From NCBI GenBank assembly GCA_964527065.1, contig CAZGNX010000001.1, positions 45-64,044 of the forward strand: a stretch of 64,000 bases of DNA, written 5' to 3'. A model generated the notes under the pieces. That model was given only the letters and a program-made list of their open reading frames with translations. It searched no databases and was not told where the DNA came from. Positions 14,966 to 39,248 of the stretch are shown piece after piece (position 1 is the stretch's first letter; every line of letters begins with the position of its first letter). The DNA comes from an uncultured Pseudomonadales bacterium (GTDB lineage Bacteria; Patescibacteriota; Microgenomatia; UBA1400; UBA12108). The position numbers and the translations under genes are program-made.

Positions 14966-16063
14966 ATGAAGATAGAAGTACTCCAGGAACAAATGATGTC
15001 GGGCATGACGACCGTGGCGCGGGCTGTGGCTAACCGCGCTCAACTGCCAGCACTTAGCCATATCCTGATTGAAGCAAAAAGGGAGGGGTTGATACTCTCC
15101 GCGACTGACCTGGAGGTGGGAATGCGCGTGAAGGTGGCGGCAAAGGTTGTAGTCGAAGGGAGGGTGGCTGTACCCGCCAAAATGCTCCTAGAGTTTTTGG
15201 GCTCGTTGAACCCGGGGCGCGTGGAGATTGTAACTCAAGGAGACTCCTTGTTGGTTTCTGCCCCTGGGTATAGCGCCAAGTTTCAGACCATAAGCCCCGA
15301 AGAGTTCCCTGCATTGCCTGAGATAGTGGGTGACACAGAGACGTGCGTACTCGAAGGGAAAGCCTTGGCAGAGGGGGTTGAGCGCGTAGCTTTTGCAAGT
15401 GCGCGCGATACACTGAGGCCCGTACTAACTGGCGTATTATGGGAAGTCTCCAAGAAAAAGGTGCGCTTGGTAGCGACCGACGGGTTTCGCTTGGCAATTG
15501 AGGAGATTGTAGCCGAAAACAAGGGAGAGGTCGGGGCCTTTTTAATTCCCTCCAGGGCCTTGGTGGAGGTTGTGAGATTGCCCACCGAAGGGAAGATCAG
15601 GGTGGGCAAGTTGAGTGCGACTAACCAGCTCTTTTTTGAGGTGGGGGACGTTCAGCTGATGTCGCAGTTATTGGATGGCAACTTCCCCGACTACCAAAAA
15701 ATCATACCCAAAGAATTTAGTACAGAGATTAAAGTAAATAGAGAGGAGCTAACGCAAGCAATTAAGGCAATGTACATTTTCGCCCGAGAGAACTCGAACA
15801 TGGTGCGCTTCCAGATTGAGAGAAACAAATTGGTACTTCTTGCCAGCTCGAGTGAGCGTGGTGAGTCGAGGGCGGAACTCCCCATAACTCTCTCTGGAGA
15901 GCCCCTTGAGATCATCTTTAATGCGCGATATGTGCTTGACTATCTATCAATTGTCGAAGGCGAGCAGGTTGAGATAGCGATGGGAGGGAAGCTCGCGCCG
16001 GGATTGTTTTGTCAATCTAATCGCGAAGGTGGGCAATACATTGTAATGCCGATTAACGCCTAA
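14966..16063 (+). CDS. dnaN: DNA polymerase III beta sliding clamp
   Basis: 365 aa. Three-domain clamp architecture. 'LLDGNFPDYQKIIPKE' conserved motif. Follows dnaA. Confidence 0.95.
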   Translation: MKIEVLQEQMMSGMTTVARAVANRAQLPALSHILIEAKREGLILSATDLEVGMRVKVAAKVVVEGRVAVPAKMLLEFLGSLNPGRVEIVTQGDSLLVSAPGYSAKFQTISPEEFPALPEIVGDTETCVLEGKALAEGVERVAFASARDTLRPVLTGVLWEVSKKKVRLVATDGFRLAIEEIVAENKGEVGAFLIPSRALVEVVRLPTEGKIRVGKLSATNQLFFEVGDVQLMSQLLDGNFPDYQKIIPKEFSTEIKVNREELTQAIKAMYIFARENSNMVRFQIERNKLVLLASSSERGESRAELPITLSGEPLEIIFNARYVLDYLSIVEGEQVEIAMGGKLAPGLFCQSNREGGQYIVMPINA

Positions 16064-17982
16064 TTTTTTTCTTTTGGAGCGGCAGGTAAACTTTGAGCAT
16101 TTAGAGGAGGAGGGGGTTGCTGAGCGTCAGCAGGAGGAGTAAGGGGCGACCTGGGAACACTATTTAACTTGGCAGTTAATGCATTTTGTTTGTCGAGCAA
16201 CTCTTGTGGGTTGGTGGTGATGAGCGCGTGTTCTTCGGGCGAGGCGACCACTTTCATGGCGACGTGGTTCTGACCGGCAAAGAAGAGGGCCTCTCCCACG
16301 TCGGCCGTGAGAAGGAGATGTCGCTCTCCTTGAGAGAGGAAAAAGGTGGTTGCCAGCTTTTCGATGGCGCTACTGCTCTGTTTCATGAGGACCTGAATAC
16401 TGGAGTTGCTGACTATGGCTTTGCCATGGTCGCTCTTGAGGAAGTCTTCAACATCCTGAGTAATGGTGGTTAAACCAAGGAAATATTTGCGGGCGCGTTT
16501 GGCGATGCCATAGAGAAAGGTGGCGGAGTCCTCTGATTTCATGAGGTACCAAGCCTCATCCACCACCAGGAGTCGGCGCTTTAGATCCCGCTTGACCTTG
16601 GTCCAGATGTAGTCGAGGATGATAAAAATGGCGGTGGGGCGGAGCTCATCCTGGAGATTTTTGATCCCAAAAACTGTGAGCTGGGTACCAAAATTGACGT
16701 TGGATTTTTGGGAGAAGATGCCCTGAAACGAACCCTTGACGTATTTCTCTAGGCGATCAGCGAGCCCGCGGGCCACGGCCTCTTCCATGCCGTTGAGAAC
16801 CTTGTAGAGATCTTCCATGAGCGGTGGCTCGAGGGTGTGGGTTGAGGGATCGCGAGTAATCCCCTTCATTTGATAAGTCATCACAAGGGCGCGGTCGAGG
16901 AGCGCTTCTTCTTGGGGCGTCATATCGCCCATCATAATTTTGAGAAGTGAGTGAAGGCTAATAATCTTCATGGCGAGCTCATTTTCGTCGGGCTCTTTCA
17001 TTTGGGGGAGTTCGAAGGGGTTGATGCGGTTGGGGGAGCTAAAGGAGAAGTCAATGTAAGTTCCCTTGATGGCGGAGGAGAGCTTGCGGTACTCGTCCTC
17101 GGGGTCGATGACGATAACCTCCGTGTCAAAGAGGAGCGAGCGCAAGATCTCGAGCTTGACCATGTAGGACTTGCCTGAGCCTGACTTGGCAAACACAACC
17201 ATGTTGGCATTTTCGAGGGTAAAGCGATCAAATACCACAAGACTATCATTGTGTTCGTTGATGCCATACATGAGGCCTTCATTTTGGGTGAGTTCACTAC
17301 TAGTAAAGGGGAAGGTGGTGGCGAGGGAGGTGGTGTCCATGTTGCGGTTCATTTTGAGCTTGTCGAGGCCGGTGGGGAGCGTGGTCTTAAAGCCATCCTC
17401 GATCTGGAGACTCGCGGTTTTGGCGACGATTAAGAGAGCGCCGAGCGCGGACTTGACGTGGTTGGTGACGCGGTCCAAGATATCTTTTTTGTCGTCGCGG
17501 ATCGTGATGTAGAGCCCAAACTGGAAAAAGCGCTCCGATCCTTTGGCCAGTTGTTCTTGGAGTGAGCGGGCGTCTTCGAGTTTGACTTGCGTATCAATAT
17601 TGATAATGCGACCCCGCTGAATGTCTCCTTGGAGCTCGGCCTCCATCTCGGCGATTTTGCGCCGCAAGTCTTCGATAACGCCCTTGCCGTCGACGGGGTA
17701 GATAAACATGGAGATCGAGAGGGAGTGGGGGAAGTTGATGAGCGGGGAGAGCCAGTTGGCGTTCACAAATCTGGGGTAGCCTGCGACGAAGAGAGTGCGG
17801 TAGTAGGTGTCGTTGATTTTGAGATCTGAGAAATCGACCTCGATGGCTTCGGGGGCGATGATATCTTTGACGTTGGTGGTGCCTTGGGACAAGATGGTGA
17901 CGGCGGGAGAGACCTGGGGGCCAGCATCTTTGTCACTCCCCTTTTTGGCACCAAAAAATGACGGCAGGTTCAGTTTGGGCAT
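16060..17982 (-). CDS. virB4: VirB4/TraE/PrgJ-family type IV secretion ATPase
   Basis: 640 aa. Walker A 'VVFAKSGSGKSY', 'NPFE', Walker B 'RLLVVDEAWYLM', C-terminal Pro-rich tail. The stop overlaps the dnaN stop. Confidence 0.85.
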   Translation of the reverse strand: MPKLNLPSFFGAKKGSDKDAGPQVSPAVTILSQGTTNVKDIIAPEAIEVDFSDLKINDTYYRTLFVAGYPRFVNANWLSPLINFPHSLSISMFIYPVDGKGVIEDLRRKIAEMEAELQGDIQRGRIINIDTQVKLEDARSLQEQLAKGSERFFQFGLYITIRDDKKDILDRVTNHVKSALGALLIVAKTASLQIEDGFKTTLPTGLDKLKMNRNMDTTSLATTFPFTSSELTQNEGLMYGINEHNDSLVVFDRFTLENANMVVFAKSGSGKSYMVKLEILRSLLFDTEVIVIDPEDEYRKLSSAIKGTYIDFSFSSPNRINPFELPQMKEPDENELAMKIISLHSLLKIMMGDMTPQEEALLDRALVMTYQMKGITRDPSTHTLEPPLMEDLYKVLNGMEEAVARGLADRLEKYVKGSFQGIFSQKSNVNFGTQLTVFGIKNLQDELRPTAIFIILDYIWTKVKRDLKRRLLVVDEAWYLMKSEDSATFLYGIAKRARKYFLGLTTITQDVEDFLKSDHGKAIVSNSSIQVLMKQSSSAIEKLATTFFLSQGERHLLLTADVGEALFFAGQNHVAMKVVASPEEHALITTNPQELLDKQNALTAKLNSVPRSPLTPPADAQQPPPPLNAQSLPAAPKEKN

Positions 17983-18134
17983 AATAGTCTCAGTATATCA
18001 GCTAGCTGGCAAGTCGGTAACTCAGTGAAATCGGTAGATTATTATTCAGTAAGCCAGCAGATCAGTGTTTCTGTTTTGCTGATGCACGGGGTGGCTGATT
18101 TGCCGAAAAACCGAATAACTGGTTTCACAGCTCA

Positions 18135-18776
18135 TTACTTTGCGGCGACGTTGGGGGCGACGATAGCCTGCTCGTAATCTGAGGCAGTGGTGAATTTTTG
18201 ACCCTTGACCGTGGAGTTGTAAAAACTGTGGAAGAGCTTCATCAAGCTCTGGGAGTTGATTTGTTGGGCGGTTAACCCAATGCGGGTGAGTTGTTTGATG
18301 AGATGATCGCGTTTGGGTTCAAGGTCGGTTTTGGCTTTGAGGATTAAGTCCTCGGTGATTTCGACTTTGCCGGAGAGGGTGACGAGTTGATAGGAGACGA
18401 CAATATAGAATTTTTTATCGAGCACGTTTTGTTCGGTGATTGTCGTTTCAATAAAACTGCGATATTGTTTCATGCGCTCCTTAAGGACTTCGTCTTTGAG
18501 TTTTTTCTCCTGGAGAGAAAGGAGTTCGATATAGGCGCTGATGTCTTTTTTCTCTGATTTGATCACGATTTGGATAGGGAAGGAGAGCGAATTGAGTAGG
18601 CCCGCGTAGGCATAGATGGTCGCGTCCTGCTCTTCTTCGGATAGGAGGCCAAAGTTGATGGCAGAGGTTTGGATGACCAGGCTACAAATGCCGTTTTTGA
18701 GAATGACCAAGTCGTCTTGAACAGTTTCGATGTCGAGATGATCTTGGGTGGTGGCGACAATGACTGATTCGGGCAT
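18135..18776 (-). CDS. hypothetical T4SS-associated protein
   Basis: 213 aa, no TM segment or signature recognised. Its position immediately upstream of virB4 in the same operon supports the call. Confidence 0.5.
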   Translation of the reverse strand: MPESVIVATTQDHLDIETVQDDLVILKNGICSLVIQTSAINFGLLSEEEQDATIYAYAGLLNSLSFPIQIVIKSEKKDISAYIELLSLQEKKLKDEVLKERMKQYRSFIETTITEQNVLDKKFYIVVSYQLVTLSGKVEITEDLILKAKTDLEPKRDHLIKQLTRIGLTAQQINSQSLMKLFHSFYNSTVKGQKFTTASDYEQAIVAPNVAAK

Positions 18777-18944
18777 GAAGCTAGTATAGCGGTTGTTCTC
18801 GCAATCTGCACGACCCCAAACGCAAAAGCGGTCTATCTGCGTCTGCTGACGCAGCGACCTAGAACTCGGCCTAACACGGCCTGCGTAGTTTTTGCAACTT
18901 GTGGCGCGCAGATCACTCGAACAATCTCTTATTAAGAAGGAGAT

Positions 18945-19946
18945 TCAACTACTTGCCCTGAGCTCAATTGGAGATAGGATGGTATTGTTAACGGCGAGCT
19001 GTTGAGGCGGGAAACTGAACCCATCTTTGTCGACCTCGATGACATAGGTCCCAGGACCAAGGGGGGTGGAGGTGTAGAACTGGCCGAGCGAGTTAGTCTT
19101 CATGGCCCTTTGGGGAATGCCGTCGCCGCTGACAATTTGGACGATTGCGTCTGGCACCAATTTGTCTCCTGCATCCACAACCACTCCGGTCACGAGGTTG
19201 GCAACCTTGGGGGAGGCGGGGAGGGTGATGTGTTTGGCAGAGCTAATCGGCACCGTCGCCGCTGATCTGGGGGCAGTGGGCTTGGAAGCGAAGACTATGT
19301 TTTCGGTGGTAGGGGGCGCAGAGACAGTGGTTGGGTTGGGCGCGGACTTGGGTATAGAGATCGGGACAGTTTTTGGAGTTTGGACGATCCGGTTGACCAC
19401 GGCTGACTGTGGGTTGAGTTTGCGGACAACAATTGAGGGCTTGACGACATCAACTGTTTTGGGGGGAGCTGGGGCGGTAGGGGTGACAGGAAGGGAGGTA
19501 AAGAGCGAGTCGAGAGAGGTAATCTTTGTTGATTCTTCAGCGCTCAAGTCTGAGATAGGCGTGCCTACCACTTGAGAGCTGGGAGCTTTGATGGTTTTGG
19601 TAATGGTGGTGACTAGGTCGGGGGGGTGGGCAGTGAAGAGAAACAAACTAGGGATTTTGTTGGTTTTTTGCCAGGTGAAGCGAGTGGGAGCATAAATTGC
19701 TTTGATAAAGTTGACAATCCACTGGTCAAGTGGGCGGTCTTCGATGGGGAAGAAGGCGAGGCCCACCCCCAAGAGGAGCGAGAGAATGACAAGTGGCCAC
19801 TTGAAGATGAAGATAAGGTTGCTGGCAAAGAAGAGGTAGGCAAGCACCATGCCCAGGGCCAGCTCCAAAAATTGCTTGAGCGTCATGTCTCCCACCAGGC
19901 GGAACTGGTACTGGGTCACGTTTTGGGGGATGGGGTGCTGCTGCAT
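18945..19946 (-). CDS. PrgI-like (VirB3-analogue) membrane protein with Pro/Thr-rich linker and C-terminal CarboxypepD_reg-like beta-sandwich
   Basis: 333 aa. TM 'FKWPLVILSLLLGVGLAFFP' + 'IEDRPLDQWIVNFIKAIYAPTRFTW' resembles the PrgI family. C-terminal 'VVDAGDKLVPDAIVQIV...GQFYTSTPLGPGTYVIEVDKDGFSF'. Confidence 0.45.
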   Translation of the reverse strand: MQQHPIPQNVTQYQFRLVGDMTLKQFLELALGMVLAYLFFASNLIFIFKWPLVILSLLLGVGLAFFPIEDRPLDQWIVNFIKAIYAPTRFTWQKTNKIPSLFLFTAHPPDLVTTITKTIKAPSSQVVGTPISDLSAEESTKITSLDSLFTSLPVTPTAPAPPKTVDVVKPSIVVRKLNPQSAVVNRIVQTPKTVPISIPKSAPNPTTVSAPPTTENIVFASKPTAPRSAATVPISSAKHITLPASPKVANLVTGVVVDAGDKLVPDAIVQIVSGDGIPQRAMKTNSLGQFYTSTPLGPGTYVIEVDKDGFSFPPQQLAVNNTILSPIELRASS

Positions 19947-19991
19947 ACAGTTTGAGTATACGGTATGCGGTAGAGAGTATGAAGTATGGGA

Positions 19992-20618
19992 TCAAGGAGA
20001 TGGAGACGGACTGGCAATAACATACCTGTGGGCTTCGGCGTCACCGCCCATGCTCTTTACCCACTCCTTGATTTCGTCAATGGCTTCTTGCGAAGTTATA
20101 TTGAGATTTTTGAGGGTGATCTCTAGTGTCATGGGGGAGGAGTAGACCACGCGGTAGAGTGGGGTGGTGTAGGGGGTGGATTGGGCAAGAGGATAGTCGC
20201 GCGCTAGCTCATCCTTCATGTTTTTGATGAGCAGCGGGTCGGTTTGAGAAGCTTGGGTGGTGAAGGAGTAGTCAGGAAGCTTTTGGTCTTTCCACTTGAT
20301 TTGCAGGAGATATTTTGTTTGTGGTTGAAGAAGAAGAGCAGGCTGTGCTCGTAGGCTTGTGGGGCTGCTTTGACTAAGCGTCCAGGAGATGCTTGGAACA
20401 GAGGCGAGTGTAAAATCAGCCGCAAAAACCTCTTCATCAAAAGTCAATAATGGTTTGATCTCGAGGCTTACGGCAAGGGCATTATGTGTGGGATTAGCTG
20501 CTACAATTTGGGGAGGGCTCGCCATCGACTTGTTCAAAAACACAAAAATAGCCAAAACGACCCCTAGGCCAACAGCCATGATTACATATAAGAGCCTTGA
20601 TCGTAAAAAGCGCTGCAT
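19992..20618 (-). CDS. membrane-anchored hypothetical protein (T4SS locus)
   Basis: ~208 aa. N-terminal TM 'LLYVIMAVGLGVVLAIFVFL', then a Ser/Thr-rich extracytoplasmic region. Translationally coupled to the upstream 945-aa gene. Confidence 0.5.
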   Translation of the reverse strand: MQRFLRSRLLYVIMAVGLGVVLAIFVFLNKSMASPPQIVAANPTHNALAVSLEIKPLLTFDEEVFAADFTLASVPSISWTLSQSSPTSLRAQPALLLQPQTKYLLQIKWKDQKLPDYSFTTQASQTDPLLIKNMKDELARDYPLAQSTPYTTPLYRVVYSSPMTLEITLKNLNITSQEAIDEIKEWVKSMGGDAEAHRYVIASPSPSP

Positions 20619-23455
20619 CATATTCTTCTTAGGTGTCCTGCCACACCAGTTTTAGGGAGACAATTATTGGCGCTAACACAACCATTGCACACTTGGTTGG
20701 CGTCTACCAGACAGACTAAGGCTCCCGCATCTTGCGACATTATACCAATATGGCCCGGGGCGCCGTCGCTACAAGTGCCTGAAGAATTAAAGACAATGGG
20801 GTCTCCGGGCCTGGCCCCACTGAGACCAGACACAAACTGGTATCCTGCGGCACCGCTTGTGTAGTTGCATGCATTTTTCCCTTCGAGACTCCCCCCAGCG
20901 CAGGCGATAGAAGCTTGGACAAAACCAACACATTGGAGATAGGTATAGGAGGTGGCAGAACGCTCGATGATTGCGGCAACTTCTGGTGCGACGGCCTTAG
21001 CGAGGAGGCAACCGATTCCTGTGGTTTGGATTCTTGCGCCTGTTACTGCGGGTCCGTAGCAGGCAGTAAGATAGTCGACGAGACAATTAGCACAACTCAA
21101 GACAGAGTTCCCTGGTGATTGTTCCACGGGGGCGGTCGTCTCTGCGCTTGCTTCGTCATCGTTACAAAAGATGGCGGCGAATAGTTCTGGTCCTGAATCG
21201 ATGTGAGAAGTTATGTTGAATACCTGGAAGAGTAGAAACACCCCTGCAATTAGGGCGCCAACGGCGATGAGAGCAGGGAGAAAAACAGTGGAGAAGAGGG
21301 TTGTTACTAATGTCCCAATAGCACCGATTAAGGCCGAGCCTGTGGCAATTACCCAGGCAACTACGGCGGCGGGAATTGCGACAACTGCGGAGGAAGCAAT
21401 GGATAAGATGGCTGGTAGGCGGCGGATGATCTTGTCTCGGAAGCCGTTTTGGTTGGTGATGAATTCCCAAATGCCCTTGAGACCTGCCCCAATCGCCATA
21501 AGCCCAGCTTGGATCAAAATAGTGGTTCCACCGGAAAGAGTTCCTGCCAGGAAAGACGCTACAACTTTGCCGATTGCGCCATTACTCAGCTTGGTGGCAA
21601 TCCCTGGTGCTATTTTTGTAAACCCACTCCATAACTTGGAGGCTACGGCGGCTTTGACAGCGGTAATGTCCTTTTTATTGAGTATCGTGCGCGCGCTCCA
21701 ATCTAAGATGTTTCCCCACTTTTTTTCGACAAAGTTAAAACTGGCATGACTCCAACTGCCGCCGGCCTGTACGAACCCTTTGGAAAAATCTGAGATGTGG
21801 GTAAAGATGCCGGCATACCACTTGCCGCTTGTACTGGCCTTGGTGGCGACCCCCGTAGACCAGTTAAGGATTTTGTCGGCGATCCAGAGCTGTCCAAGCG
21901 TTGTTTTGTCGGAGATAAGCCTGGCGGGGTTGAGCAGAGGAATCTTTTCTTCGAGCTGTTCCCACTTTTCTGCTAAGTAGTTGAAGGGAGAATGGATAAA
22001 ATCATCGACAGCCCAGATAGTTTTGCCGATTTTTTGAGAGAAACGATCGATGGGAGCTTTGGTGGCGGCATACGTCCCCCTGGCCCGACCAATCTTGTCC
22101 CGCACAGAGAAGAGCACGTCATGATCCAAGGCATATTTGTAGCGCTCGTATTCCGAGCGATATTTAAAGTGATGAACAATCTCAATAATGGCTTCAAAAT
22201 TGGCGTCTTTGCCTTCTTTTGCAAGCTCGGCTTGTAAGAATGCTGTGAGATCTTTGGTTTTATACTTCTCCTCTAGCATGAGACCACTACGGTCTAGGTC
22301 TTTACGCGACCGCCAAGGAGTGTCAAGGGAGACCCCAATGTCTCTGGTTAAACTAAGTGTATGGAGGAGGCGCGGATCACTTTCGAGTACGTTGCCACCT
22401 AAGATTTTGGCCACTTCGTTTTGACGCACTTCTTCGATCAGGGGAGCGAGTGAGGAGAGCTGGTCGAAGGCGGTATCAGGGAAACCGGCCGACTTGAGTG
22501 ACTCCCGGATAAGGACTTCGCCGGAGACAAATCCTGAGGTGGTGGTTGCGATGATGTTTTTACGAAGTGATTCAACGAGCTTGTCCTTGTTTAGATCATG
22601 ACCGGCGACAAGATCAACTAGAGTGGGGATGTCGGCAATGGTTGTTAGCTGGGGGAGGGAGGATAAGCGGGACATATCATCACGGAAGGCTTTTTGTCCT
22701 TCGGGACTACCCCCATACTCCTTTTGAATGACCGCCTCAATGGCGCTCGTGAGTTCGGGTAGCTCTTGATCGGCCTTGGCAGAGTAAGCAAGGTGGCTAG
22801 CATTGTTCAAGGCACCATCACCGGATCTCAGCTGGATTAACTGGGTAATCTCCTCGGCGATAGCGATGGTGCTCTTGCCTGGCGCCGGGCGCAGATTGGC
22901 GGCATCGGCTGCAAGGAGTGCTGAGAGCACCGAAAAAGTGTAGGGGTCTCCTGCAAAGCGCTTTAAGTACTGAGTTTGCTGGATGGCGGTCGTGAGTTTG
23001 CCGAGGATTTTGTCGTTGATTAACTTATATTGCAGATTACGGAGTTCGTTGGCTTTTTTATATGTCTGTCCTTCAGCTGTCTCAGGGCGTAAGTTCTTGA
23101 GAGGGGTGTCTTTGGCTGAGTCAAGAATGGAGCGGAAGTTAGCGGCGGCTTCGCGTGACTTGCCTTGTACGTTGATCTCGAGATAGTTAAGCAGTCGCGA
23201 TGCCCTGATTTTACGCGAGCCCCGGTCGCCCATTGGTAGACTAACCTCGTTGTCCCTTGCCCAAGCCGTAATCTCTTGCCAGGCTTCTTCGGGGGAGAGT
23301 TTGAGTTTTGTTTTATCTGGTAAGTCGAGTTCTAAGGGACGGTTGCTGAGGATGAGCTTGAGGTAGTAGGTGAGGAGCTGGTGGTTACTATTTAAGTCTC
23401 GAGCCAAGAGATCTTGGAGATAGCGACGTTGAACTTGTGAGATTGTACTGGCCAT
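20618..23455 (-). CDS. T4SS-associated membrane protein with C-terminal CHAP-domain peptidoglycan hydrolase (VirB1 functional analogue)
   Basis: 945 aa. ~640-aa N-terminal helical domain, then a TM cluster ('LPAILSIASSAVVAIPAAVVAWVIATGSALIGAIG...'). C-terminal 'YTYLQCVGFV' (catalytic Cys) and 'GAPGHIGIM' (His) of CHAP. Confidence 0.65.
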   Translation of the reverse strand: MASTISQVQRRYLQDLLARDLNSNHQLLTYYLKLILSNRPLELDLPDKTKLKLSPEEAWQEITAWARDNEVSLPMGDRGSRKIRASRLLNYLEINVQGKSREAAANFRSILDSAKDTPLKNLRPETAEGQTYKKANELRNLQYKLINDKILGKLTTAIQQTQYLKRFAGDPYTFSVLSALLAADAANLRPAPGKSTIAIAEEITQLIQLRSGDGALNNASHLAYSAKADQELPELTSAIEAVIQKEYGGSPEGQKAFRDDMSRLSSLPQLTTIADIPTLVDLVAGHDLNKDKLVESLRKNIIATTTSGFVSGEVLIRESLKSAGFPDTAFDQLSSLAPLIEEVRQNEVAKILGGNVLESDPRLLHTLSLTRDIGVSLDTPWRSRKDLDRSGLMLEEKYKTKDLTAFLQAELAKEGKDANFEAIIEIVHHFKYRSEYERYKYALDHDVLFSVRDKIGRARGTYAATKAPIDRFSQKIGKTIWAVDDFIHSPFNYLAEKWEQLEEKIPLLNPARLISDKTTLGQLWIADKILNWSTGVATKASTSGKWYAGIFTHISDFSKGFVQAGGSWSHASFNFVEKKWGNILDWSARTILNKKDITAVKAAVASKLWSGFTKIAPGIATKLSNGAIGKVVASFLAGTLSGGTTILIQAGLMAIGAGLKGIWEFITNQNGFRDKIIRRLPAILSIASSAVVAIPAAVVAWVIATGSALIGAIGTLVTTLFSTVFLPALIAVGALIAGVFLLFQVFNITSHIDSGPELFAAIFCNDDEASAETTAPVEQSPGNSVLSCANCLVDYLTACYGPAVTGARIQTTGIGCLLAKAVAPEVAAIIERSATSYTYLQCVGFVQASIACAGGSLEGKNACNYTSGAAGYQFVSGLSGARPGDPIVFNSSGTCSDGAPGHIGIMSQDAGALVCLVDANQVCNGCVSANNCLPKTGVAGHLRRI

Positions 23456-28399: not shown

Positions 28400-28909
28400 T
28401 TAGGGCTTGAGCTTGAGAGCGGTAATCCAGGCTTGGGTAGTATGTCTCACATATTCTTTGTCGCCGTAGATGAAAATGAGTTTTTTGGGATCAATATTTT
28501 GACCTTCAAGCATCTCCATAGCCTTGAGATAACTTTCTTTGAACGCTGTGACGTTGGGGTTCTTTTTTTCGTCTGCATCCGCGTTGAGATATGAGAGGCC
28601 GTAGATCTCGAGACGTACAATCTCGGCTTCGTCGTCGTCAAGGCGATAGAGGTTGATAGAAGTGGTGATGCCCACGGAGGTCTCGAAGGACTCGAGGTAG
28701 AGTGGGAGCTTGTTTTCAATCGAAGCAACATACACCATAGTGTCGCGGCGTTTTTCGGCTGAGAGATCGGCGAGTTCGATGCGGCTGGGTCCAGTTGGGA
28801 CGGGTAGTTCTGCAGGGTTGCTGACATTTTTACTTGGCGAGAGAAGTAGTACTAGGACGAGGAGAGAGATCGAGATAGCGGCGGCGATAAGGAAGAATTT
28901 GTTGTTCAT
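28400..28909 (-). CDS. membrane-anchored hypothetical protein
   Basis: 169 aa. N-terminal TM 'FFLIAAAISISLLVLVLLL'. Translationally coupled (3-nt gap) to the upstream 879-aa gene. Confidence 0.5.
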   Translation of the reverse strand: MNNKFFLIAAAISISLLVLVLLLSPSKNVSNPAELPVPTGPSRIELADLSAEKRRDTMVYVASIENKLPLYLESFETSVGITTSINLYRLDDDEAEIVRLEIYGLSYLNADADEKKNPNVTAFKESYLKAMEMLEGQNIDPKKLIFIYGDKEYVRHTTQAWITALKLKP

Positions 28910-28911
28910 AC

Positions 28912-31551
28912 CTAGAACCCTGGTAGCTTGATAATATCACCCGCGACAATACGCAAAATCGAGACCGAGAAAATAAGGAAGAGGAGTCCGGTGACGGCGG
29001 CACCAAAGAGTTCTTTGCCTTTTTTGAGTTTCTCGTCATTGTCTCTGGCGGTCATGATTTGGAAGATGGCGATAAACATCACCACGATAGCGATACCGCC
29101 GGCTAGGCCGACCAAGAAAGCAAAAAGCGCGGTGCCAAAGGCCTCTCTCGTGTAGGGGATACAACCCAGGGCGGTGGAGAGTGATTGCGGGCCACAACTC
29201 GTGGGGAAGAAGCCGAAGGTGCCAGGCTCGTTGTCTGGTGTTGTGGGGGGGATTAGTGGGGCGGGAGGGGGAGAGGGGAGCTCGGTATTTTCATAACCAC
29301 CCTTGGTCATGTTGTTATACACGCTGAGAGCAACAGTAAACGAACCAGGTCTTTCAAAGATTTGAGGGGCGCAGGCGGTGCGGTCGGCACAGTAGAGGAG
29401 ATACATCGAATCGTGTTTGCCATCGAGGAAGCTGGTCGGGTAGGGATCGTCCTCGCCTTCAAAAGCGCGGGGACAGCCGCCATAGGGGATGGGATAAGGA
29501 TAACCGAGTTGACAGTTACTGTTGCCACCACCGTTGTAGCGGGAGAGAGCGGTGATGGCAGTCTGCGCATCCCCAATTGCCCCGCCCACCTTGCCTTTGA
29601 GATGTTCACCCGCATAGACGGCAGTCTCAAGGAGGGAGCGGAAGATCTTACCGCCCGCATCGGGCTCGGGAGTGCCGAGAGCCCGCCCAGAAACGAGTGA
29701 GCCATTGGGGTTATTGGCCGCCTCGACAAAGTGGATACCCGCCAAGATTTCACACGGTACGCCGGTCTCCTTTTCGGCGGCGGCATAGGTGTTCATTAGT
29801 TCGGCGCTCAAATTGGGTTGGATAAACGTCGAGAAGTAGCTCTCGCCCTTGGCGCTCGCGCTCTGATAATTACTACTGCCAAGCAGTTCACCAAACAGCC
29901 GTCCGTCACATTTACCTTCTGGTACCACCTGGGCGGTATCGCAGCCATTGCGGGTACCCAGAGCGTACGCCTCAACGCTAGTCTCAAGCTGAGCGGAAAA
30001 CATGTTGTCAGCACAGGTGTAGTAGCCATAATGACGCCTACCATCGGCGGGACCTGAGTATTTGCCTGCTTTGAGAAGATCAAGGTTGTCGTCTACGACA
30101 TTGCTGAGTTTAACATTAAACTCTTTGACTGATTCTAGCTCGGCCAAGGTATCGCGAGTGTCGTAGGTGTATTGCTTAATCTCTGCGATACTTTGACCCA
30201 TTGCGTCTGGAATTGTCAAGAGGTGATAAACGACAGGTTCAACGTCGTCAATCTGAGCGCCCCAAATGAGATTGATGAGAGCTTGTAGAAGGTTGCCGGT
30301 GGGGAATGCCGCGGCCTTTTCTTTTTGTACCTCTGGTTGGAGGCGGTAGCCAGGGCAGTTTTTATCTCCTCCGAGAAAAGATGGTGTTTCCAAATAGTCG
30401 TAGATTTGGTAAAAGGCGCCGTAGGAACCAAAGTGATATTTGAAACAGGGATTGCTCGCCATAAGCTCTGGAATGAGGCGTGCCTTAATCTTTTTGGCGG
30501 TGGCGTTTGGCGCCGCAGAGCCAGCAAAGCGAATTAGCTGGTTGGACGAGGCAAGGTCGCGAATTATTTTGCTTGCCTCATCTAGTGGATAGGTGAGAAG
30601 TAGATCGTCAAGGGCGGCGCCAAAGGCTTGGGAGATAGAGATGTCGCCGTAGAGCGCGTTGGAGTTGCCCTCCAACGCAAGGCTGCTAAAGGGGCAGTTT
30701 TCTCCGGGGCAACAGCGATCCCAGACGCAGATACTGGCGTGGACATACCCCTGGCGAAACGAGGGGCTATACATCGGGACTTGGGAGAGGTCCCTAAACC
30801 ACTCAGGTGGGGTAGTTTGTGAAGCTGCCTCTTCTATAGCGTCACAGGCTCGTTTACGGGAGCTTGAGGCATCGGAGACGGCATCGAGATTGCCGGCGTT
30901 TAAGAAAAAATCGTCCGTTGCTTCCACTATCACCTGTCCAGCCCCTGCCAATCCTCCAGGTATTTCGTCGCGGATCTCGAGTAAGGTTTTGCCGTTCTGG
31001 GTTGTGTAGCCCCAGTCGACCCAGCCAAGTGGCCACTGCCCAGTCTCAGCTAGAGTGTTCTTGGTTTGCTTGGCACGAATCACGACCATGAGCTGTTTGG
31101 TCATGATCTCGCACTGAGTAAGCCCGAGGAAGTGGGTACCCCAAGTGATCGCGTTATCTGTACCCATGTTGCCATACAAGAGGGCTTCGTTTTGGATTTT
31201 GGGGAAAACGAGGCGAGTGAGTGGACGAGCGCCCGTCTCAGCTCCCGTTTCTTGATTCAGTGTCCGATTCTCAGCGGAAAAGTCCGTAGCTTTGATATCG
31301 GAGCCAACGCGGGGTTTTTTCTTGTACTCACATTCGCCCACGCTAACCCCACTCTTGGTAGGATCTTTGATGGCGGTACAACTACCATTGCCTGAAGAGA
31401 CTGTACTATGATAATCACCTCTGCCATTGGCCACCTTGCGCTCACAGAGATCAACCTCTCCACCATCACAGCCGTCAATGAGCTCGCCTGATTGATTATC
31501 GCGCTCACAATAGTCATCTCTACGATCAGCACCTTCGTACTCACAGACCAT
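28912..31551 (-). CDS. giant secreted fusion protein: Cys-rich region + SLT-like lytic transglycosylase motif + C-terminal VirB2/TrbC-like pilin module. Preceded in frame by a signal-peptide ORF cut off by TAG
   Basis: 879 aa from the Met at 31551. 'ILAGIHFVEAANNPNGSLVSGRALG' resembles the SLT catalytic 'ESSFNPNA...GA.GLMQ'. The last ~80 aa ('LGCIP...GLAGGIAIVVMF...KKGKELFGAAVTGLLFLIFSVSILRIVAGDIIKLPGF') are nearly identical to ORF 38811..39248. Confidence 0.7.
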   Translation of the reverse strand: MVCEYEGADRRDDYCERDNQSGELIDGCDGGEVDLCERKVANGRGDYHSTVSSGNGSCTAIKDPTKSGVSVGECEYKKKPRVGSDIKATDFSAENRTLNQETGAETGARPLTRLVFPKIQNEALLYGNMGTDNAITWGTHFLGLTQCEIMTKQLMVVIRAKQTKNTLAETGQWPLGWVDWGYTTQNGKTLLEIRDEIPGGLAGAGQVIVEATDDFFLNAGNLDAVSDASSSRKRACDAIEEAASQTTPPEWFRDLSQVPMYSPSFRQGYVHASICVWDRCCPGENCPFSSLALEGNSNALYGDISISQAFGAALDDLLLTYPLDEASKIIRDLASSNQLIRFAGSAAPNATAKKIKARLIPELMASNPCFKYHFGSYGAFYQIYDYLETPSFLGGDKNCPGYRLQPEVQKEKAAAFPTGNLLQALINLIWGAQIDDVEPVVYHLLTIPDAMGQSIAEIKQYTYDTRDTLAELESVKEFNVKLSNVVDDNLDLLKAGKYSGPADGRRHYGYYTCADNMFSAQLETSVEAYALGTRNGCDTAQVVPEGKCDGRLFGELLGSSNYQSASAKGESYFSTFIQPNLSAELMNTYAAAEKETGVPCEILAGIHFVEAANNPNGSLVSGRALGTPEPDAGGKIFRSLLETAVYAGEHLKGKVGGAIGDAQTAITALSRYNGGGNSNCQLGYPYPIPYGGCPRAFEGEDDPYPTSFLDGKHDSMYLLYCADRTACAPQIFERPGSFTVALSVYNNMTKGGYENTELPSPPPAPLIPPTTPDNEPGTFGFFPTSCGPQSLSTALGCIPYTREAFGTALFAFLVGLAGGIAIVVMFIAIFQIMTARDNDEKLKKGKELFGAAVTGLLFLIFSVSILRIVAGDIIKLPGF

Positions 31552-31644
31552 TAGTGGTTGATAGTCACGAGTGAGATCGCGGTTTTCGTAGACTTTGAAA
31601 TATGGTGCTCGTATGAAACGAAAGAGACTGAATAGCTCAAACTA

Positions 31645-31773
31645 CTCCTCGCGCTCGGGGTTGCCTTCAATAGAGAAGGGGGGGAAGGGGTCGATGGCCA
31701 GGGAAAGAGGAGGAAATAGGAAATAGGAAATAGGAAATAGGAATAATACGAAAAAACGCAAGAGCTTTTTCAT
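31645..31773 (-). CDS. signal-peptide mini-ORF (43 aa) in frame with the 879-aa gene but separated by TAG (31642-31644). Possible pseudogene 5' part or readthrough site
   Basis: Hand translation: MKKLLRFFVLFLFPISYFLFPPLSLAIDPFPPFSIEGNPEREE*. 'LA|IDP' matches the cleavage context of the 145-aa paralogue ('AALAIDP'). Frame stays open from 31641 to the Met at 31551. Confidence 0.5.
31712..31746. repeat. (GGAAATA)4 + GGAATAA heptanucleotide tandem repeat within the signal-peptide ORF
   Basis: Read directly. Same unit as 10607-10634. Encodes 'FPISYFLFP'. Confidence 0.9.
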
Positions 31774-31775
31774 AG

Positions 31776-32072
31776 CTAGTTAAAGCCAAATCTAAACTCA
31801 GTGACACTGGCTCCTGTTGTATTTTGGATGAATAAGAGGATGAGCCAGGAGAGAATTGAGAGCGCGATACCCACCACTGCGAGAGTAATTGTCTGCTTGC
31901 CTCCGGCCATACCCTTGGGATCACCACCTGAGGTAAGAATCTTGAAACCGCCAATGAGGAGCATGATAAAGGCAACTATGCCAATGAGGGGGATCATGGC
32001 CTCAAGGATGTTGCCGAAGTAGTCGGAGAGACAAGATAGTTCGGCGGCGGAAGCGGTATCGTTGCATGGCAT
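31776..32072 (-). CDS. VirB2/TrbC-like pilin family small membrane protein (paralogue 1)
   Basis: 98 aa. Two hydrophobic helices flanking 'LTSGGDPKGMAGG'. Same architecture as its neighbours. Confidence 0.5.
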   Translation of the reverse strand: MPCNDTASAAELSCLSDYFGNILEAMIPLIGIVAFIMLLIGGFKILTSGGDPKGMAGGKQTITLAVVGIALSILSWLILLFIQNTTGASVTEFRFGFN

Positions 32073-32280
32073 ATGGGATGATTATAGCAAAGAGCAAGGG
32101 TCGGATGATCACATTAATTTTATCTCACTGACTAAAATTGATCTCAAATACGATTGCTCGCAGGCTTCTCGTCTGCACCTGTTCGACTAGACGGCATACT
32201 CGCATTTTCAGGCGAATTTTCGCTCAATTTCTTAACGTATGTTCGTAAAATTAACGATGATCATCCTCACGCTAGGAGTC

Positions 32281-32631
32281 TTAGTAGGCTTTGGGTGGGG
32301 TGATGTTGTCGTTCAATATGCTGATACCGAAGAAGTATTGAATGACAAGCATGATGGCCCAGGCGCTCGCCACAACCGCCAAGCCAACGAGAGCGGCAGT
32401 GATACGATCACGAGCTTCCTGCGTTTTGCCTTTGTCACCGCCGGAGGTGATCCATTGGATGCCACCCCAAATAAGATACATGAAGACGAGCAGGGCAGAT
32501 ATAAGTAGAGCACCCTGGACAGCCCCTTTGATGAGCGTGCCAATGTTGGTGATGGCGACGTTTTCGGGTTTGCCAATTGAGAGTTCTGGAGCGCCTGGGG
32601 CTTGAGCGTAAACTTTGATTGAATCAAACAT
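32281..32631 (-). CDS. VirB2/TrbC-like pilin family small protein (paralogue 2)
   Basis: 116 aa. 'GGIQWITSGGDKGKTQEARDRI' loop between two hydrophobic helices. Confidence 0.55.
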   Translation of the reverse strand: MFDSIKVYAQAPGAPELSIGKPENVAITNIGTLIKGAVQGALLISALLVFMYLIWGGIQWITSGGDKGKTQEARDRITAALVGLAVVASAWAIMLVIQYFFGISILNDNITPPKAY

Positions 32632-32680
32632 ATCTTTCTCCTTATTTGTACTATCTAGTTATAGTGTAGTCAATTATTGA

Positions 32681-33049
32681 TTATTGTGCAATACCTATTC
32701 CAAAGAAATAATCTAGCAGGAGATAGACTGCCCAAGCAGAGGCGACAATGGCGAGTCCAATGATGCCGTTGGTGATTTTGGCGCGCGCTTCGTCCAGTTT
32801 GCCCTTGTCACCACCGGAACTAATCCACTGCAGACCTCCATAGATAAGATAGAGGAGCGTGGCAAGGCCAGCCACAAGAATAATGGCAGAGATGGTTTTG
32901 CTGACGAATGAGCCAAGATCGGTGTTGATGGCGACGCGTGATTCGACCTGATCACCTATACTGACGTTGAATGAGCCGGCTTGGGCATGAGCTGAGCTAG
33001 GAAAGAGGAAAGAGGAAAGAGGAAATAGATACAGTAAAATTTTTTTCAT
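32681..33049 (-). CDS. VirB2/TrbC-like pilin family small protein (paralogue 3)
   Basis: 122 aa. Signal peptide 'MKKILLYLFPLSSFLFPSSAHA'. 'GGLQWISSGGDKGKLDEARAKI'. Confidence 0.55.
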   Translation of the reverse strand: MKKILLYLFPLSSFLFPSSAHAQAGSFNVSIGDQVESRVAINTDLGSFVSKTISAIILVAGLATLLYLIYGGLQWISSGGDKGKLDEARAKITNGIIGLAIVASAWAVYLLLDYFFGIGIAQ

Positions 33050-33053
33050 ATGC

Positions 33054-33443
33054 TCAGCCGGCAGTGGGCCAGATTATATTGAGTATATTCATCCCGATGG
33101 CCATCTCAATAAACTTGATAATGACATAAGAGGCAGCGAGGAGGGCGAGTCCCACGAGACCTTGGGTGATTTTGCCCCTAGCTTCGTCGATCTTGCCTTT
33201 GTCACCCCCGGCCGTGATCCACTGTAAGCCGCCGTGCAAAAAGTAGAGGATAAACGCGAGCCCACCTACAAGAATGATGGTCTGCCAAAGAGTAGCGATC
33301 GTGATAGCAAATTGTTGTGGGGAAGCATCGGGTGAGTCACCTCCTGGTACGGCGGTGTTGGTGATGGCGGCATGCGCCAGAGACGCTCTTGTATAAAGTA
33401 TGGAGTATAGGGTATATAGTATCGGGACTATTTTGTTTGTCAT
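33054..33443 (-). CDS. VirB2/TrbC-like pilin family small protein (paralogue 4)
   Basis: 129 aa. 'GGLQWITAGGDKGKIDEARGKI'. N-terminus 'ILYTLYSILYT' is encoded by a degenerate AGTATRG heptamer repeat (33395-33425). Confidence 0.55.
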   Translation of the reverse strand: MTNKIVPILYTLYSILYTRASLAHAAITNTAVPGGDSPDASPQQFAITIATLWQTIILVGGLAFILYFLHGGLQWITAGGDKGKIDEARGKITQGLVGLALLAASYVIIKFIEMAIGMNILNIIWPTAG

Positions 33444-33445
33444 TT

Positions 33446-33805
33446 TTAGTTCACTGTAAGGCCGTTAATAAGTGCGCCAGGGTTGAGGATGTCGAGCCCC
33501 AGTGCTTTGCCCACAATCCAGACGATAGCATAAGAAACAGTGACTACAATGATGCCTGTTGCGCCTCCTGTCATCATGCTTTTGGCTTTGTCGATCTTGC
33601 CTTTGTCACCACCGGCCGTGATCCAATTGAGGCCACCCAGGAGGAAATAGAGGGCGAAGGCTATGCCAGCCACGAGAGTGAGGATTACAAGAATATTGCT
33701 GATGAGTTTTTCCACGGCACTTGTTGACCCCTCGATGCCTGTCCCTGGTTGGTAGCCACCGGGAGTGGTGATGTTGCCAAATTGGAGCGCGAGGTATTTG
33801 TTCAT
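33446..33805 (-). CDS. VirB2/TrbC-like pilin family small protein (paralogue 5)
   Basis: 119 aa. 'GGLNWITAGGDKGKIDKAKSMM'. Confidence 0.55.
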   Translation of the reverse strand: MNKYLALQFGNITTPGGYQPGTGIEGSTSAVEKLISNILVILTLVAGIAFALYFLLGGLNWITAGGDKGKIDKAKSMMTGGATGIIVVTVSYAIVWIVGKALGLDILNPGALINGLTVN

Positions 33806-33809
33806 ATGT

Positions 33810-34148
33810 TTAGTTGGGTGATCCTGGTCCGACTATATTGGGGGAGAGAATTGCGGTCGCAGAACCAAAGAGGAGGAAAGAGACTATGCCAGTGACGGCA
33901 GCCGCGGCTACCATGATGGCGAGGCCGATGAGGGACATGTTGATTGAGTAGAGCGCTGACTCGATCTTTTTAGTATCTCCGGCGGCGCTAATATAACTAA
34001 AACCAGCTATCATGAGGTTGAAGAAAGCGAATAGTCCGGCGGCGGCAAAAATAATCGTAATAACATTGGTTATAAAAGTAGGGAGGCCAGACTCAACGGA
34101 ACCGTAGGCGGTGATGGGGGAATCGATACTACCAAATGTGCTTGGCAT
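33810..34148 (-). CDS. VirB2/TrbC-like pilin family small protein (paralogue 6, divergent)
   Basis: 112 aa. 'SYISAAGDTKKIESAL' between two hydrophobic helices. Confidence 0.5.
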   Translation of the reverse strand: MPSTFGSIDSPITAYGSVESGLPTFITNVITIIFAAAGLFAFFNLMIAGFSYISAAGDTKKIESALYSINMSLIGLAIMVAAAAVTGIVSFLLFGSATAILSPNIVGPGSPN

Positions 34149-34152
34149 AAGT

Positions 34153-34473
34153 TTATATATTACTGTTTAGTATTGATAGTCCTGTCACCACTTGGATTAG
34201 TTGGATAATCCAGTAAGAGGCGAAGAGGACTAACAGCCCCATTATAGCAGAGGTGATAGTTTTGGTACCGTCTTTGATTTTGTCAGTGTTGCCGGCATTG
34301 CTGATGATGGTAAAGCCGCCAAAGAGGATCATAAAGAAGATGACAATACCTCCGGCGATATAGACATTGGGGAGAATGTTGTTGATAAGGGAGCTCGTGT
34401 CTGGATACTGGGAACTGGCGGGGGTACCCTGGAATTTGAGTTTTTCACCAATATTGACGGTAGAAACTGGCAT
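34153..34473 (-). CDS. VirB2/TrbC-like pilin family small protein (paralogue 7, divergent)
   Basis: 106 aa. 'GGFTIISNAGNTDKIKDGTK' between two hydrophobic helices. Confidence 0.5.
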   Translation of the reverse strand: MPVSTVNIGEKLKFQGTPASSQYPDTSSLINNILPNVYIAGGIVIFFMILFGGFTIISNAGNTDKIKDGTKTITSAIMGLLVLFASYWIIQLIQVVTGLSILNSNI

Positions 34474-38810: not shown

Positions 38811-39248
38811 TTAATTAATGAACCCTGGTAGTTTGATGATATCACCTGCAACTATTCGTAGAATAGACACGGAGAAGATAATAAACAAAAGTCCGGTGAT
38901 CGCTCCAGTAAATAATTCTTTGCCCTTTTTAACTTGTTCGGCATTATTGCCACCAGTCATAATCTGGATAGTTGCAATGAGCATAATGATGATGGAGATA
39001 CCTCCCGCTAAACCTGTAAGAAAGGTGAGGAGGGCGGAGGAAAATCCGGCAGTAGAGGTGGGGATACAGCCAAGACCCGTGTTGATCTGTGGGTTTGTGG
39101 CGGAGCTACCGGGGCACCCACTAGTGGGGTCGATGGCGAGGGCCGCAGGGGCGAGTATAAAGTATAGAGTATAGAGTATGGAGTATAGAGCTGGGCGAGC
39201 GTGTGTTAGGATATGGGTATGGTTTCTCTCTGGAAAAAGCTTGTTCAT
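38811..39248 (-). CDS. free-standing pilin module paralogous to the C-terminus of the 879-aa protein
   Basis: 145 aa. 'GLGCIPTSTAGFSSALLTFLTGLAGGISIIIMLIATIQIMTGGNNAEQVKKGKELFTGAITGLLFIIFSVSILRIVAGDIIKLPGFIN'. Signal-peptide codons lie on an (AGTATAG)5-type heptamer repeat (39153-39189). Confidence 0.6.
   Translation of the reverse strand: MNKLFPERNHTHILTHARPALYSILYTLYFILAPAALAIDPTSGCPGSSATNPQINTGLGCIPTSTAGFSSALLTFLTGLAGGISIIIMLIATIQIMTGGNNAEQVKKGKELFTGAITGLLFIIFSVSILRIVAGDIIKLPGFIN
39153..39189. repeat. AGTATAA/AGTATAG/AGTATAG/AGTATGG/AGTATAG heptanucleotide tandem repeat in a signal-peptide coding region
   Basis: Read directly. Encodes 'LYSILYTLYFIL' on the minus strand. Confidence 0.85.

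Follow-up and report, generated by a model that had tools for sequence, protein, structure and literature searches.

Does the in-frame TAG that separates the signal peptide of a giant pilin-fusion protein from the rest of its gene mark a lost gene, a faulty base call, or a stop codon that ribosomes pass? The question arises on the minus strand of the 64,000-nucleotide stretch of DNA analysed here (the window), for which the initial annotation proposed four explanations, namely a recent nonsense mutation, a sequencing error, programmed stop-codon readthrough and reinitiation at an internal methionine. Our analysis indicates that the interruption is not programmed recoding. Because a 99.9%-identical strain (L002) and 54 of 54 relatives keep the gene intact, it is an ordinary knock-out allele or an assembly error. 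The reading that we favour, and to which we give an even chance, is that the TAG is a very recent, allele-specific T>G point mutation and a genuine null allele segregating beside the intact one.

The layout described by the initial annotation is present in the sequence (Table 1). The upstream 98-aa pilin ORF stops with TAG at 31778-31776, and the spacer CT and the ATG at 31773-31771 follow directly, so that the 43-codon ORF opens 2 nt after the pilin stop. The same coupled junction, with an in-frame MK.. start, recurs in the orthologous loci L001 (the nearest orthologue), L002, L003, L006 and L010, with the spacer CT in all of them except L006, which has GCT. The 43-codon ORF translates as MKKLLRFFVLFLFPISYFLFPPLSLAIDPFPPFSIEGNPEREE and consists of MKKLLR, a hydrophobic core and an SLA/IDP signal-peptide end, then the first 17 mature residues, before the TAG at 31644-31642. 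A like cleavage context had been attributed to a 145-aa paralogue, and the minus-strand ORF at 38811-39248 does read ...APAALAIDPTSG.... The shared frame with the 879-aa ORF was likewise confirmed: 222 nt, or 74 codons, separate ATG 31773 from ATG 31551, the internal Met is codon 75 (31551-31549), the downstream frame is open back to 31641, and all 909 codons downstream of the TAG are open. When the TAG is read through, the precursor measures about 954 aa. The core of the earlier reading, a signal peptide and conserved N-terminal segment cut from the rest of this precursor by an in-frame TAG, was thus right. A gene of similar length to the downstream 169-aa gene (169-180 aa), matched by position and length only, occupies the same place in orthologous loci.

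Table 1 Features of the interrupted locus and its surroundings (positions are those of the window).
Feature	Position	Strand	Remarks
Upstream 98-aa VirB2-like pilin (PF18895)	31776-32072	-	Last of a seven-gene pilin array, 31776-34473
Full-length gene, reconstructed	28912-31773	-	953 sense codons, TAG position counted as one; one interruption, codon 44
True start ATG	31771-31773	-	2 nt past the upstream pilin's TAG; translational-coupling junction
Signal-peptide ORF, 43 codons plus stop	31642-31773	-	N-termini of all homologues align here
Perfect heptanucleotide array (TTCCTAT) x 4.7	31711-31743	-	33 nt, 11 codons, in frame
Second T>G	31648	-	6 nt upstream of the TAG variant base; codon 42 GAG (Glu) in the window, GAT (Asp) in L002
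In-frame TAG, codon 44	31642-31644	-	TAT (Tyr) in L002 and L001; variant base 31642
Orphaned in-frame codons (n = 30)	31552-31641	-	FELFSLFRFIRAPYFKVYENRDLTRDYQPL; same frame into ATG 31551
879-aa ORF	28912-31551	-	P0001, NCBI-sourced protein collection; begins at codon 75 (Met); no signal peptide
Downstream 169-aa gene	28400-28909	-	ATG 2 nt past the TAG stop of the giant gene

The product of the interrupted gene joins a lysozyme-like domain to a VirB2-like pilin, and the gene belongs to a Patescibacteria type IV secretion system (T4SS) cluster. From the N-terminus, the protein is made up of a signal peptide, a Cys-rich region, helical domains, the lysozyme-like domain and a C-terminal VirB2-like pilin hairpin. 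PF18895 was detected at E <= 0.01 in 34 of 45 family members (best 8e-8); the giant protein of the window scores 18 bits against a gathering cut-off of 26.6, and its C-terminus is 60% identical to the 145-aa paralogue, itself a PF18895 pilin. Four genes of the neighbouring pilin array were scanned and match PF18895 at E = 4e-5 to 5e-9, while two of the other three have a weak precomputed call on L002 and the 119-aa one has none. The cluster near the array includes a VirB4/TraG-type ATPase, a PrgI-family protein and a CHAP-domain protein and lies beside dnaA and dnaN, with about 14 kb between the pilin array and the ATPase gene. The gene is thus situated in a pilin array near VirB4 and other T4SS genes. 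The predicted fold of part of an orthologue matches MltF, goose-type lysozyme, SltB1, MltD, Slt70 and MltE, and in this model the domain appears lysozyme-like. An invariant Glu lies in the conserved PCEILAGIHF.EA motif, and both E675 and E684 are invariant. Scans of the window protein and family members returned no Pfam domain beyond the pilin hairpin, and the family profile gave no significant match in the PDB; for the large domain, a result came from the fold comparison alone. The fusion of a lysozyme-like domain to a VirB2-like pilin may be worth more than the TAG itself.

On the evidence of alignment, the continuity of the frame across the TAG is not due to chance, because 54 homologues (908-977 aa, most covering 97-100%) align with the readthrough translation from one end to the other. 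All 54 are uninterrupted at the TAG position. Column counts over 44 homologues gave Tyr in 16, Phe in 14, Gln in 6 and His in 3 at this position (Tyr or Phe in 30 of the 44) and never a stop. The rest of the gene is undegraded, and the 909 downstream codons display no further stops, frameshifts or lost invariant residues. If real, the interrupting event would be very recent, because the window ORF keeps every family-invariant residue. The 30 orphaned codons between the TAG and ATG 31551 are a conserved mature-protein segment rather than an untranslated leader: they include the invariant residues E63, N64, R69 and Y71 (numbered with Tyr at codon 44), and residues 31-60 of the orthologue model have a pLDDT of about 90.

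A frame kept perfectly across the TAG and an intact downstream ORF are also what would be seen if the codon were read, by programmed readthrough or by reassignment to Tyr, Gln, pyrrolysine or another residue, to give full-length protein at a regulated level. We regard this as very unlikely, since the stop is private to the window allele, occurring in none of the 54 homologues and replaced by TAT in the 99.9%-identical L002. TAG is moreover a normal terminator here, closing 16 of 63 long ORFs in the window, the interrupted gene itself and its upstream neighbour among them, and no tRNA-CUA occurs in the 64-kb window. The 121-nt segment spanning and following the TAG (31660-31540, minus strand) folds no better than shuffles (z = 0.11), and this comparison revealed no readthrough-stimulating RNA structure after the stop.

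Reinitiation at Met 31551 fared little better. Under this explanation the 879-aa product from Met75 would be the functional protein of this strain and, lacking a signal peptide, would be inserted by way of its C-terminal hairpin; the protein collection does list this ORF, and ATG 31551 is the first in-frame start codon past the TAG. An exact look-up of the 879-aa product gave no record. Just 8 of 44 homologues have Met in this column, where Glu is the commonest residue, and no Shine-Dalgarno-like or purine-rich ribosome-binding site precedes the ATG. Starting there also discards the signal peptide together with a segment that holds invariant residues and is predicted to be ordered. An extracytoplasmic region of about 780 residues, with its many invariant cysteines and lysozyme-like fold, would presumably need export. 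These observations make a functional Met75 product highly improbable.

The initial annotation also noted a heptanucleotide repeat nearby that could separately switch the frame. The array is real, though it occupies 31711-31743 rather than 31712-31746, and it encodes FLFPISYFLFP, the hydrophobic core of the signal peptide. Its unit is perfect, not divisible by three and located in the 5' coding region, which is the repeat layout of phase variation as in the neuO heptanucleotide switch (PMC3046976), and perfect arrays with other units recur at the same place in orthologues. A slippage switch that turns the gene off is possible in principle, but the array here shares its frame with the start codon as well as with the downstream ORF, it has only 4-5 copies, and the base substitution that interrupts the gene lies 67 nt further downstream and does not involve the repeat. 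The repeat-unit count, a check that had been proposed, is identical in the window, L002 and L003, as it is between L007 and L008; the L001 array is degenerate with its length unchanged, and nine of nine arrays inspected are in frame. Within this small sample no copy-number difference or out-of-frame allele was seen, and we give the array very little chance of being the cause of the OFF state.

Signal peptides built from heptanucleotide repeats may, as an observation in their own right, be worth more than the TAG. Further repeat arrays in the window lie at 32999-33025, 39153-39190 and 10605-10631. Four homologues with short N-termini (P0016, P0020, P0024 and P0048) were considered as phase-OFF alleles and rejected: each has an upstream MK.. 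start in frame, and the gene caller had placed the start at an ATG within the repeat or a little downstream of it. A VirB6-like gene in L006 likewise has an in-frame upstream start where the caller chose a later ATG.

Comparison with near-identical assemblies locates the change. L002 is an independent assembly from another sample (SRR31850038) and is 99.90% identical to the window over 7.1 kb, differing at 7 of 7098 positions. Its version of the interrupted ORF is open for 325 codons, up to the contig end. Where L002 reads GAT GAG TAT the window reads GAG GAG TAG, two T>G differences 6 nt apart, the one at 31642 being A>C on the plus strand. The sense codon that the initial annotation had proposed to seek in orthologues or strain variants therefore exists, as TAT in both L001 and L002, and a one-step change from TAT to TAG is what a nonsense allele displays. 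A single-base change separates the interrupted allele from an intact one in a near-identical strain, and it carries no signature of recoding. Exact-pattern scans of public genome and metagenome collections for the TAG region, in which one or both variant bases were left as N, gave no hits and thus no further strains. A scan of the window for stops flanked by long open frames turned up same-frame neighbouring genes and some short extensions upstream, and nothing else. A diversity-generating retroelement was considered and rejected, the window holding no template-like second copy of the region.

Contigs from a further sample, SRR8893623, match the window at 100% identity across 5.9 kb. One of them (L003) breaks off at 31649, a single base short of the first variant at 31648. 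Both alleles at the codon 42/44 site seem to be present in the SRR8893623 reads, because the contig stops at 31649 yet the contigs of this sample run straight through three other sites at which the window and L002 differ.

Of the four original explanations, a recent nonsense mutation and a sequencing error both survive this comparison. That the G calls are real and have a functional consequence is what we infer. The sequence of events on a genuine null allele would be as follows. A T>G would turn the conserved Tyr codon TAT into TAG, with the second T>G 6 nt upstream changing Asp GAT to Glu GAG. Initiation at ATG 31773 would be coupled to termination of the upstream pilin, and ribosomes would produce the signal peptide and 17 residues before ending at codon 44. 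The remaining 909 codons would be translated only by rare near-cognate readthrough or inefficient reinitiation at Met75, and the Met75 product would not be exportable, because it would lack the signal peptide and 48 conserved mature residues. The net outcome would be loss of function, possibly with polarity on two coupled downstream genes; the 169-aa gene may be affected in this way if the nonsense allele is real. Assemblers generally retain whichever branch of a graph has more coverage, and the assembled consensus has G at both positions, which favours a real and abundant allele.

The competing explanation is that the organism truly carries GAT GAG TAT and an intact gene, and that two T>G miscalls or an error-bearing graph branch entered the consensus. 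We hold this to be a serious contender, a little short of an even chance. A pair of T>G changes separated by 6 nt, in sequence that does not differ otherwise, resembles clustered Illumina miscalls; with 7 SNPs spread over 7.1 kb, a rough calculation gives p ~0.035 for two of them falling so close together by chance. T>G and A>C are the commoner types of Illumina miscall, and errors that depend on sequence context occur in runs (PMC3141275); a GGC does lie 19 nt upstream on the coding strand, but this is beyond the <=10 nt described for such a trigger (PMC3141275). The SRR8893623 contig breaks here and not at the three other strain SNP sites, and a second break in this sample (gap 32853-32844) likewise starts and ends on a coding-strand T. 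A systematic error and a new mutation account equally well for heterogeneity that is limited to this site and has no linked SNPs. The pristine state of the remainder of the gene agrees with an artefact, and a real null would be a costly loss in a conserved part of a secretion system whose essential role has been reported for a related epibiont (PMC12102498). Against an artefact stands, besides the consensus choice of G at both sites, the absence of a general A>C excess in the window. Such an excess was considered on account of a third A>C-type difference from L002, at 37538, and rejected: the window keeps the conserved Pro there, and by this comparison the change lies on the L002 side.

A more ambitious reading of the favoured null allele would be that TAT and TAG alleles at comparable frequency form a selected ON/OFF polymorphism of a surface lysozyme-pilin fusion of the T4SS, and that the perfect 33-nt heptanucleotide arrays found repeatedly in signal peptides of this family and of neighbouring genes are neuO/opa-like contingency repeats in Patescibacteria. 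We consider this unlikely; if true, it might provide, for example, escape from phage or host defence in a population of ultrasmall episymbionts. The main value of the present results concerns annotation. The 879-aa protein as deposited is only part of the 954-aa precursor. Its entry needs a flag for the interruption, whether as pseudogene or possible sequence error, and is unsuitable as evidence of recoding in Patescibacteria. Should the allele be real, it would represent a natural loss of a conserved secretion-system surface component in a population, which is mildly interesting for episymbiont ecology.

Neisseria opa genes carry CTCTT repeats in their signal-peptide region. The array described here resembles them as a tandem repeat, with a unit that is not a multiple of three, in the signal-peptide region of a surface protein gene, and it shares with the neuO heptanucleotide VNTR (PMC3046976) a tandem unit of this kind in the 5' coding region. 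Unlike these switches, it has 4.7 copies only, displays no copy-number variants among the arrays seen, and did not cause the interruption. At the level of the protein, VirB1-type lytic transglycosylases, goose-type lysozyme and SLT domains share the predicted fold of part of the orthologue, whereas the present family, which matches none of the Pfam or PDB lysozyme families in sequence, carries a pilin hairpin as fusion partner and has a catalytic role that is only putative. The locus shares the layout of the VirB2-like pilin arrays found near dnaA in Patescibacteria T4SS clusters (PMC12102498), with seven tandem small ORFs of which six have PF18895. The interruption itself is most like an ordinary nonsense polymorphism, an incipient pseudogene or a consensus error in a metagenome-assembled genome, with the same one-base change from TAT to a stop, intact relatives, no recoding signal and an undegraded gene. 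It differs from these in its second same-type change 6 nt away and in a site that seems heterogeneous within one sample.

The interruption of the giant-protein gene is either a nonsense allele due to a single-base change or an error in the consensus, an ordinary event in a gene that is otherwise intact and conserved, and it is neither recoding nor a repeat-driven switch. The gene appears as two ORFs in a common frame. A 43-codon ORF encoding a signal peptide starts 2 nt after the stop of the preceding pilin gene and ends at the TAG (31642-31644). From 31641 the frame is open once more and leads into the 879-aa ORF; a distance of 222 nt between the two ATGs makes the internal Met codon 75. All of these features, together with the ALA-IDP junction of the 145-aa pilin paralogue, were found again, and the observations of the initial annotation are therefore all correct. 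The heptanucleotide repeat is also real, although it had been placed at 31712-31746 and was measured at 31711-31743.

Coordinates of the features discussed (window positions unless another locus is named)
Feature	Position	Strand	Remark
98-aa pilin ORF	31776-32072	minus	stop is TAG, 2 bases before ATG 31773
43-codon ORF	ATG 31773 to TAG 31644-31642	minus	MKKLLRFFVLFLFPISYFLFPPLSLAIDPFPPFSIEGNPEREE
In-frame open codons	31641 to ATG 31551	minus	30 codons
879-aa ORF	ATG 31551 to 28912	minus	frame common to 43-codon ORF
145-aa pilin paralogue	38811-39248	minus	...ALAIDP... junction also present
TAG-NN-ATG junctions	28909-28914; 31773-31778		2-nt spacer
L009	35599-32854		SRR8893623 contig
L003	32843-31649		SRR8893623 contig
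L004	29014-27020		SRR8893623 contig
Gap between L009 and L003	32844-32853	minus	10 nt, tctatcttat
Period-7 arrays, window	10333-10363; 10605-10631; 10768-10798; 11182-11209; 12575-12605; 31711-31743; 32999-33025; 39153-39190
Period-7 arrays, other loci	L005 445-478; L006 1490-1521 and 4826-4863; L007/L008 1489-1521
Late public gene-call starts	L005 458; L006 1501 and 5164; L007/L008 1501; L010 141
VirB4/TraG-type ATPase	16060-17982
PrgI-family protein	18945-19946
CHAP-domain protein	20618-23455
Seven-gene small-ORF array	31776-34473		6/7 match PF18895 (VirB2-like pilin)
tRNA-Ser(ACT)	51858-51949	minus	92 nt, ARAGORN
tRNA-Ser(GCT)	51736-51820		normal

A homologue search using the readthrough translation (X placed at the stop codon) returned the window's own 879-aa ORF and 54 homologues, between 908 and 977 aa long; coverage of the query, including its N-terminus, was 97-100% for most of them. 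In the N-terminal alignment every homologue displayed a signal peptide, and the motifs PFPPFS.EGNP, LF.YIRP and YENRDRSR.Y, which the TAG splits from the 879-aa ORF, were conserved across the homologues. Among 45 aligned full-length proteins (window codon 44 entered as Tyr), conservation in the segment upstream of Met75 equals or exceeds that of the remaining protein (mean top-residue frequency 0.70 versus 0.62), and this segment contains the invariant residues P39, E63, N64, R69 and Y71. The AlphaFold model of the nearest intact orthologue, P0002, has a pLDDT of ~90 for residues 31-60. Reinitiation at the internal Met had been proposed initially, but this position is Met in just 8 of 44 homologues (Glu in 18), no purine-rich ribosome-binding site was found upstream of ATG 31551, and in orthologous loci the stop and start are coupled and the MK.. 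start is in frame. These results and the conserved N-terminus show that ATG 31773 is the genuine start codon and that the collection's 879-aa protein is a truncated reading. The main consequence of the TAG finding is one of annotation.

The column of the family alignment that holds the TAG is occupied by Tyr (16), Phe (14), Gln (6) or His (3) and never by a stop; the codon is TAT in the P0002 locus L001 (77% protein identity). A look-up of the upstream pilin protein supplied the decisive comparison, with L002, a Logan assembly of SRR31850038, which corresponds to window 37896-30799 and differs at 7 of 7098 positions (99.90% identity). Its ORF from the same ATG is uninterrupted for 325 codons, as far as the contig extends, and its codons 42-44 read GAT GAG TAT (Asp-Glu-Tyr) in place of the window's GAG GAG TAG. 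Relative to L002, the window therefore carries two coding-strand T>G changes, one at 31648 (Asp to Glu, homologues having either residue) and one at 31642 (Tyr to stop). Of the remaining five differences, four are transitions. The fifth, at 37538, is a change on the L002 side, because, of three solved isopentenyl-phosphate kinases with alignments displayed, two have the window's Pro.

A second sample, SRR8893623, yielded three contigs (L009, L003 and L004), each 100% identical to the window. L009 spans three of the window-versus-L002 variant sites without a break, so the L002-type strain did not enter the assembly of that sample. L003 terminates at 31649, one base short of the variant at 31648. 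In a de Bruijn graph a contig stops where the following base is ambiguous, and we estimate the chance of an end at exactly this base at ~1 in 1000 for contigs of 1-3 kb. Because an accidental end is so improbable, the SRR8893623 reads very probably contain two versions of the short stretch at 31648. Both the nonsense mutation and the sequencing error of the initial annotation are still standing as sources of such versions. A new double substitution segregating within an otherwise clonal population has about an even chance of being correct; the consensus has G at both 31648 and 31642, and assemblers normally keep the better-covered branch. Recurrent miscalls are a serious possibility that falls short of even, favored by two changes of identical type only 6 nt apart and by the known bias of Illumina miscalls towards T>G and A>C and their clustering behind particular motifs (PMC3141275). 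Also on the side of miscalls, the second break between SRR8893623 contigs (gap 32853-32844) starts and ends on a coding-strand T; this gap may be a second two-site heterogeneity like that at the TAG, or a coverage gap. Under either explanation the event would be very recent, since the 909 remaining codons are open and every family-invariant residue is kept.

The suggestion that the heptanucleotide repeat could separately switch the frame does not explain this interruption. The array comprises 4.7 perfect copies, is in frame with the start codon and the downstream ORF, and is identical in repeat count and sequence in the window, L002 and L003 (in L001 it is of equal length and degenerate); it plays no part in the interruption. 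Period 7 is the sole short period with perfect tandem arrays of at least 3 copies in the window (3 arrays), with none for periods 4-6 and 8-12 and none in shuffles, and TRF detected eight period-7 arrays. Seven of these eight lie within coding sequence, six of the seven encoding clearly hydrophobic stretches, and the array at 12575-12605 precedes, for nearly all its length, the TTG annotated as the start of its ORF. Three occupy signal peptides (the giant protein and two pilins) and four a Wzy_C-like membrane protein (10201-11511), in which one array has the giant gene's unit, (TTTCCTA)n, encoding IPISYFLFP. At the corresponding points of the signal peptide, orthologues elsewhere have (GTACTAT)n or (CTCTATA)n as the repeat unit, with perfect arrays of ~4.6-4.7 copies (32-33 nt, ~11 codons). 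None of the arrays was out of frame, and variation in copy number was not observed. Several homologues with short annotated N-termini were considered as out-of-frame alleles and rejected, all being in frame; the ATG chosen in their public gene calls lies within the (GTACTAT)n array, just past it or further along, losing part or all of the signal peptide, with the MK.. start in frame upstream.

Programmed readthrough, also raised initially, and reassignment are effectively excluded because TAG is an ordinary terminator (it ends 16 of the window's 63 long ORFs, the interrupted gene and its upstream neighbor among them), no tRNA with a CUA anticodon occurs within the 64-kb window, the RNA surrounding and following the stop shows no folding advantage over shuffles (z = 0.11), and the 99.9%-identical strain lacks the stop. 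A separate tRNA-Ser call in the window has the anticodon ACT and adjoins tRNA-Ser(GCT). An unmodified A34 would be unusual in a Ser tRNA, and the call may reflect a mis-placed anticodon.

If the TAG is real, ribosomes starting at ATG 31773 would produce a peptide of 43 residues, and the remainder would be made only by infrequent near-cognate readthrough or weak reinitiation at Met75. From a Met75 product, the signal peptide and 48 mature-protein residues would be missing, while the large region, given its extracytoplasmic character, many invariant cysteines and lysozyme-like fold, would need export; the allele is consequently expected to be null. The 169-aa gene has its ATG 2 nt past the giant gene's stop, and polarity could extend to it and to the following gene for a 524-aa membrane protein. 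TAG-NN-ATG junctions join consecutive genes of the operon, with coupled junctions in orthologous loci too, which suggests translational coupling along the chain from pilin to giant protein to 169-aa gene.

The interrupted gene would end in a PF18895-type hairpin, since 34 of 45 family members match PF18895 and its C-terminus shares 60% identity with the 145-aa pilin. This identity extends over 110 residues (giant C-terminus, 28912-29250), the last 25 being identical, and the shared ...LAIDP junction includes a 17-nt DNA match (39126-39142 versus 31687-31703); the 145-aa pilin resembles the two ends of the giant protein copied as a separate gene. The giant protein is best described as a predicted secreted enzyme of lysozyme-like type that is either anchored by a VirB2-like pilin or part of one, and its only named homologue is from a Candidatus Woesebacteria genome. 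A putative VirB1-like function is plausible. A recent survey found VirB1 homologues mostly missing where genomes have VirB2 homologues (PMC12102498), and in Microgenomatia a VirB1-type component may have gone unrecognised in the form of this fusion of a lysozyme-like domain with a VirB2-like pilin. The window carries a Patescibacteria-type type IV secretion cluster that includes the seven-gene small-ORF array, with the VirB4/TraG P-loop, PrgI-family and CHAP-domain genes (13425-23455) directly beside dnaA and dnaN. This layout has been described for Patescibacteria, pilin arrays being especially common in Microgenomatia, and the position of the window's secretion genes matches the reported origin-proximal placement (PMC12102498).
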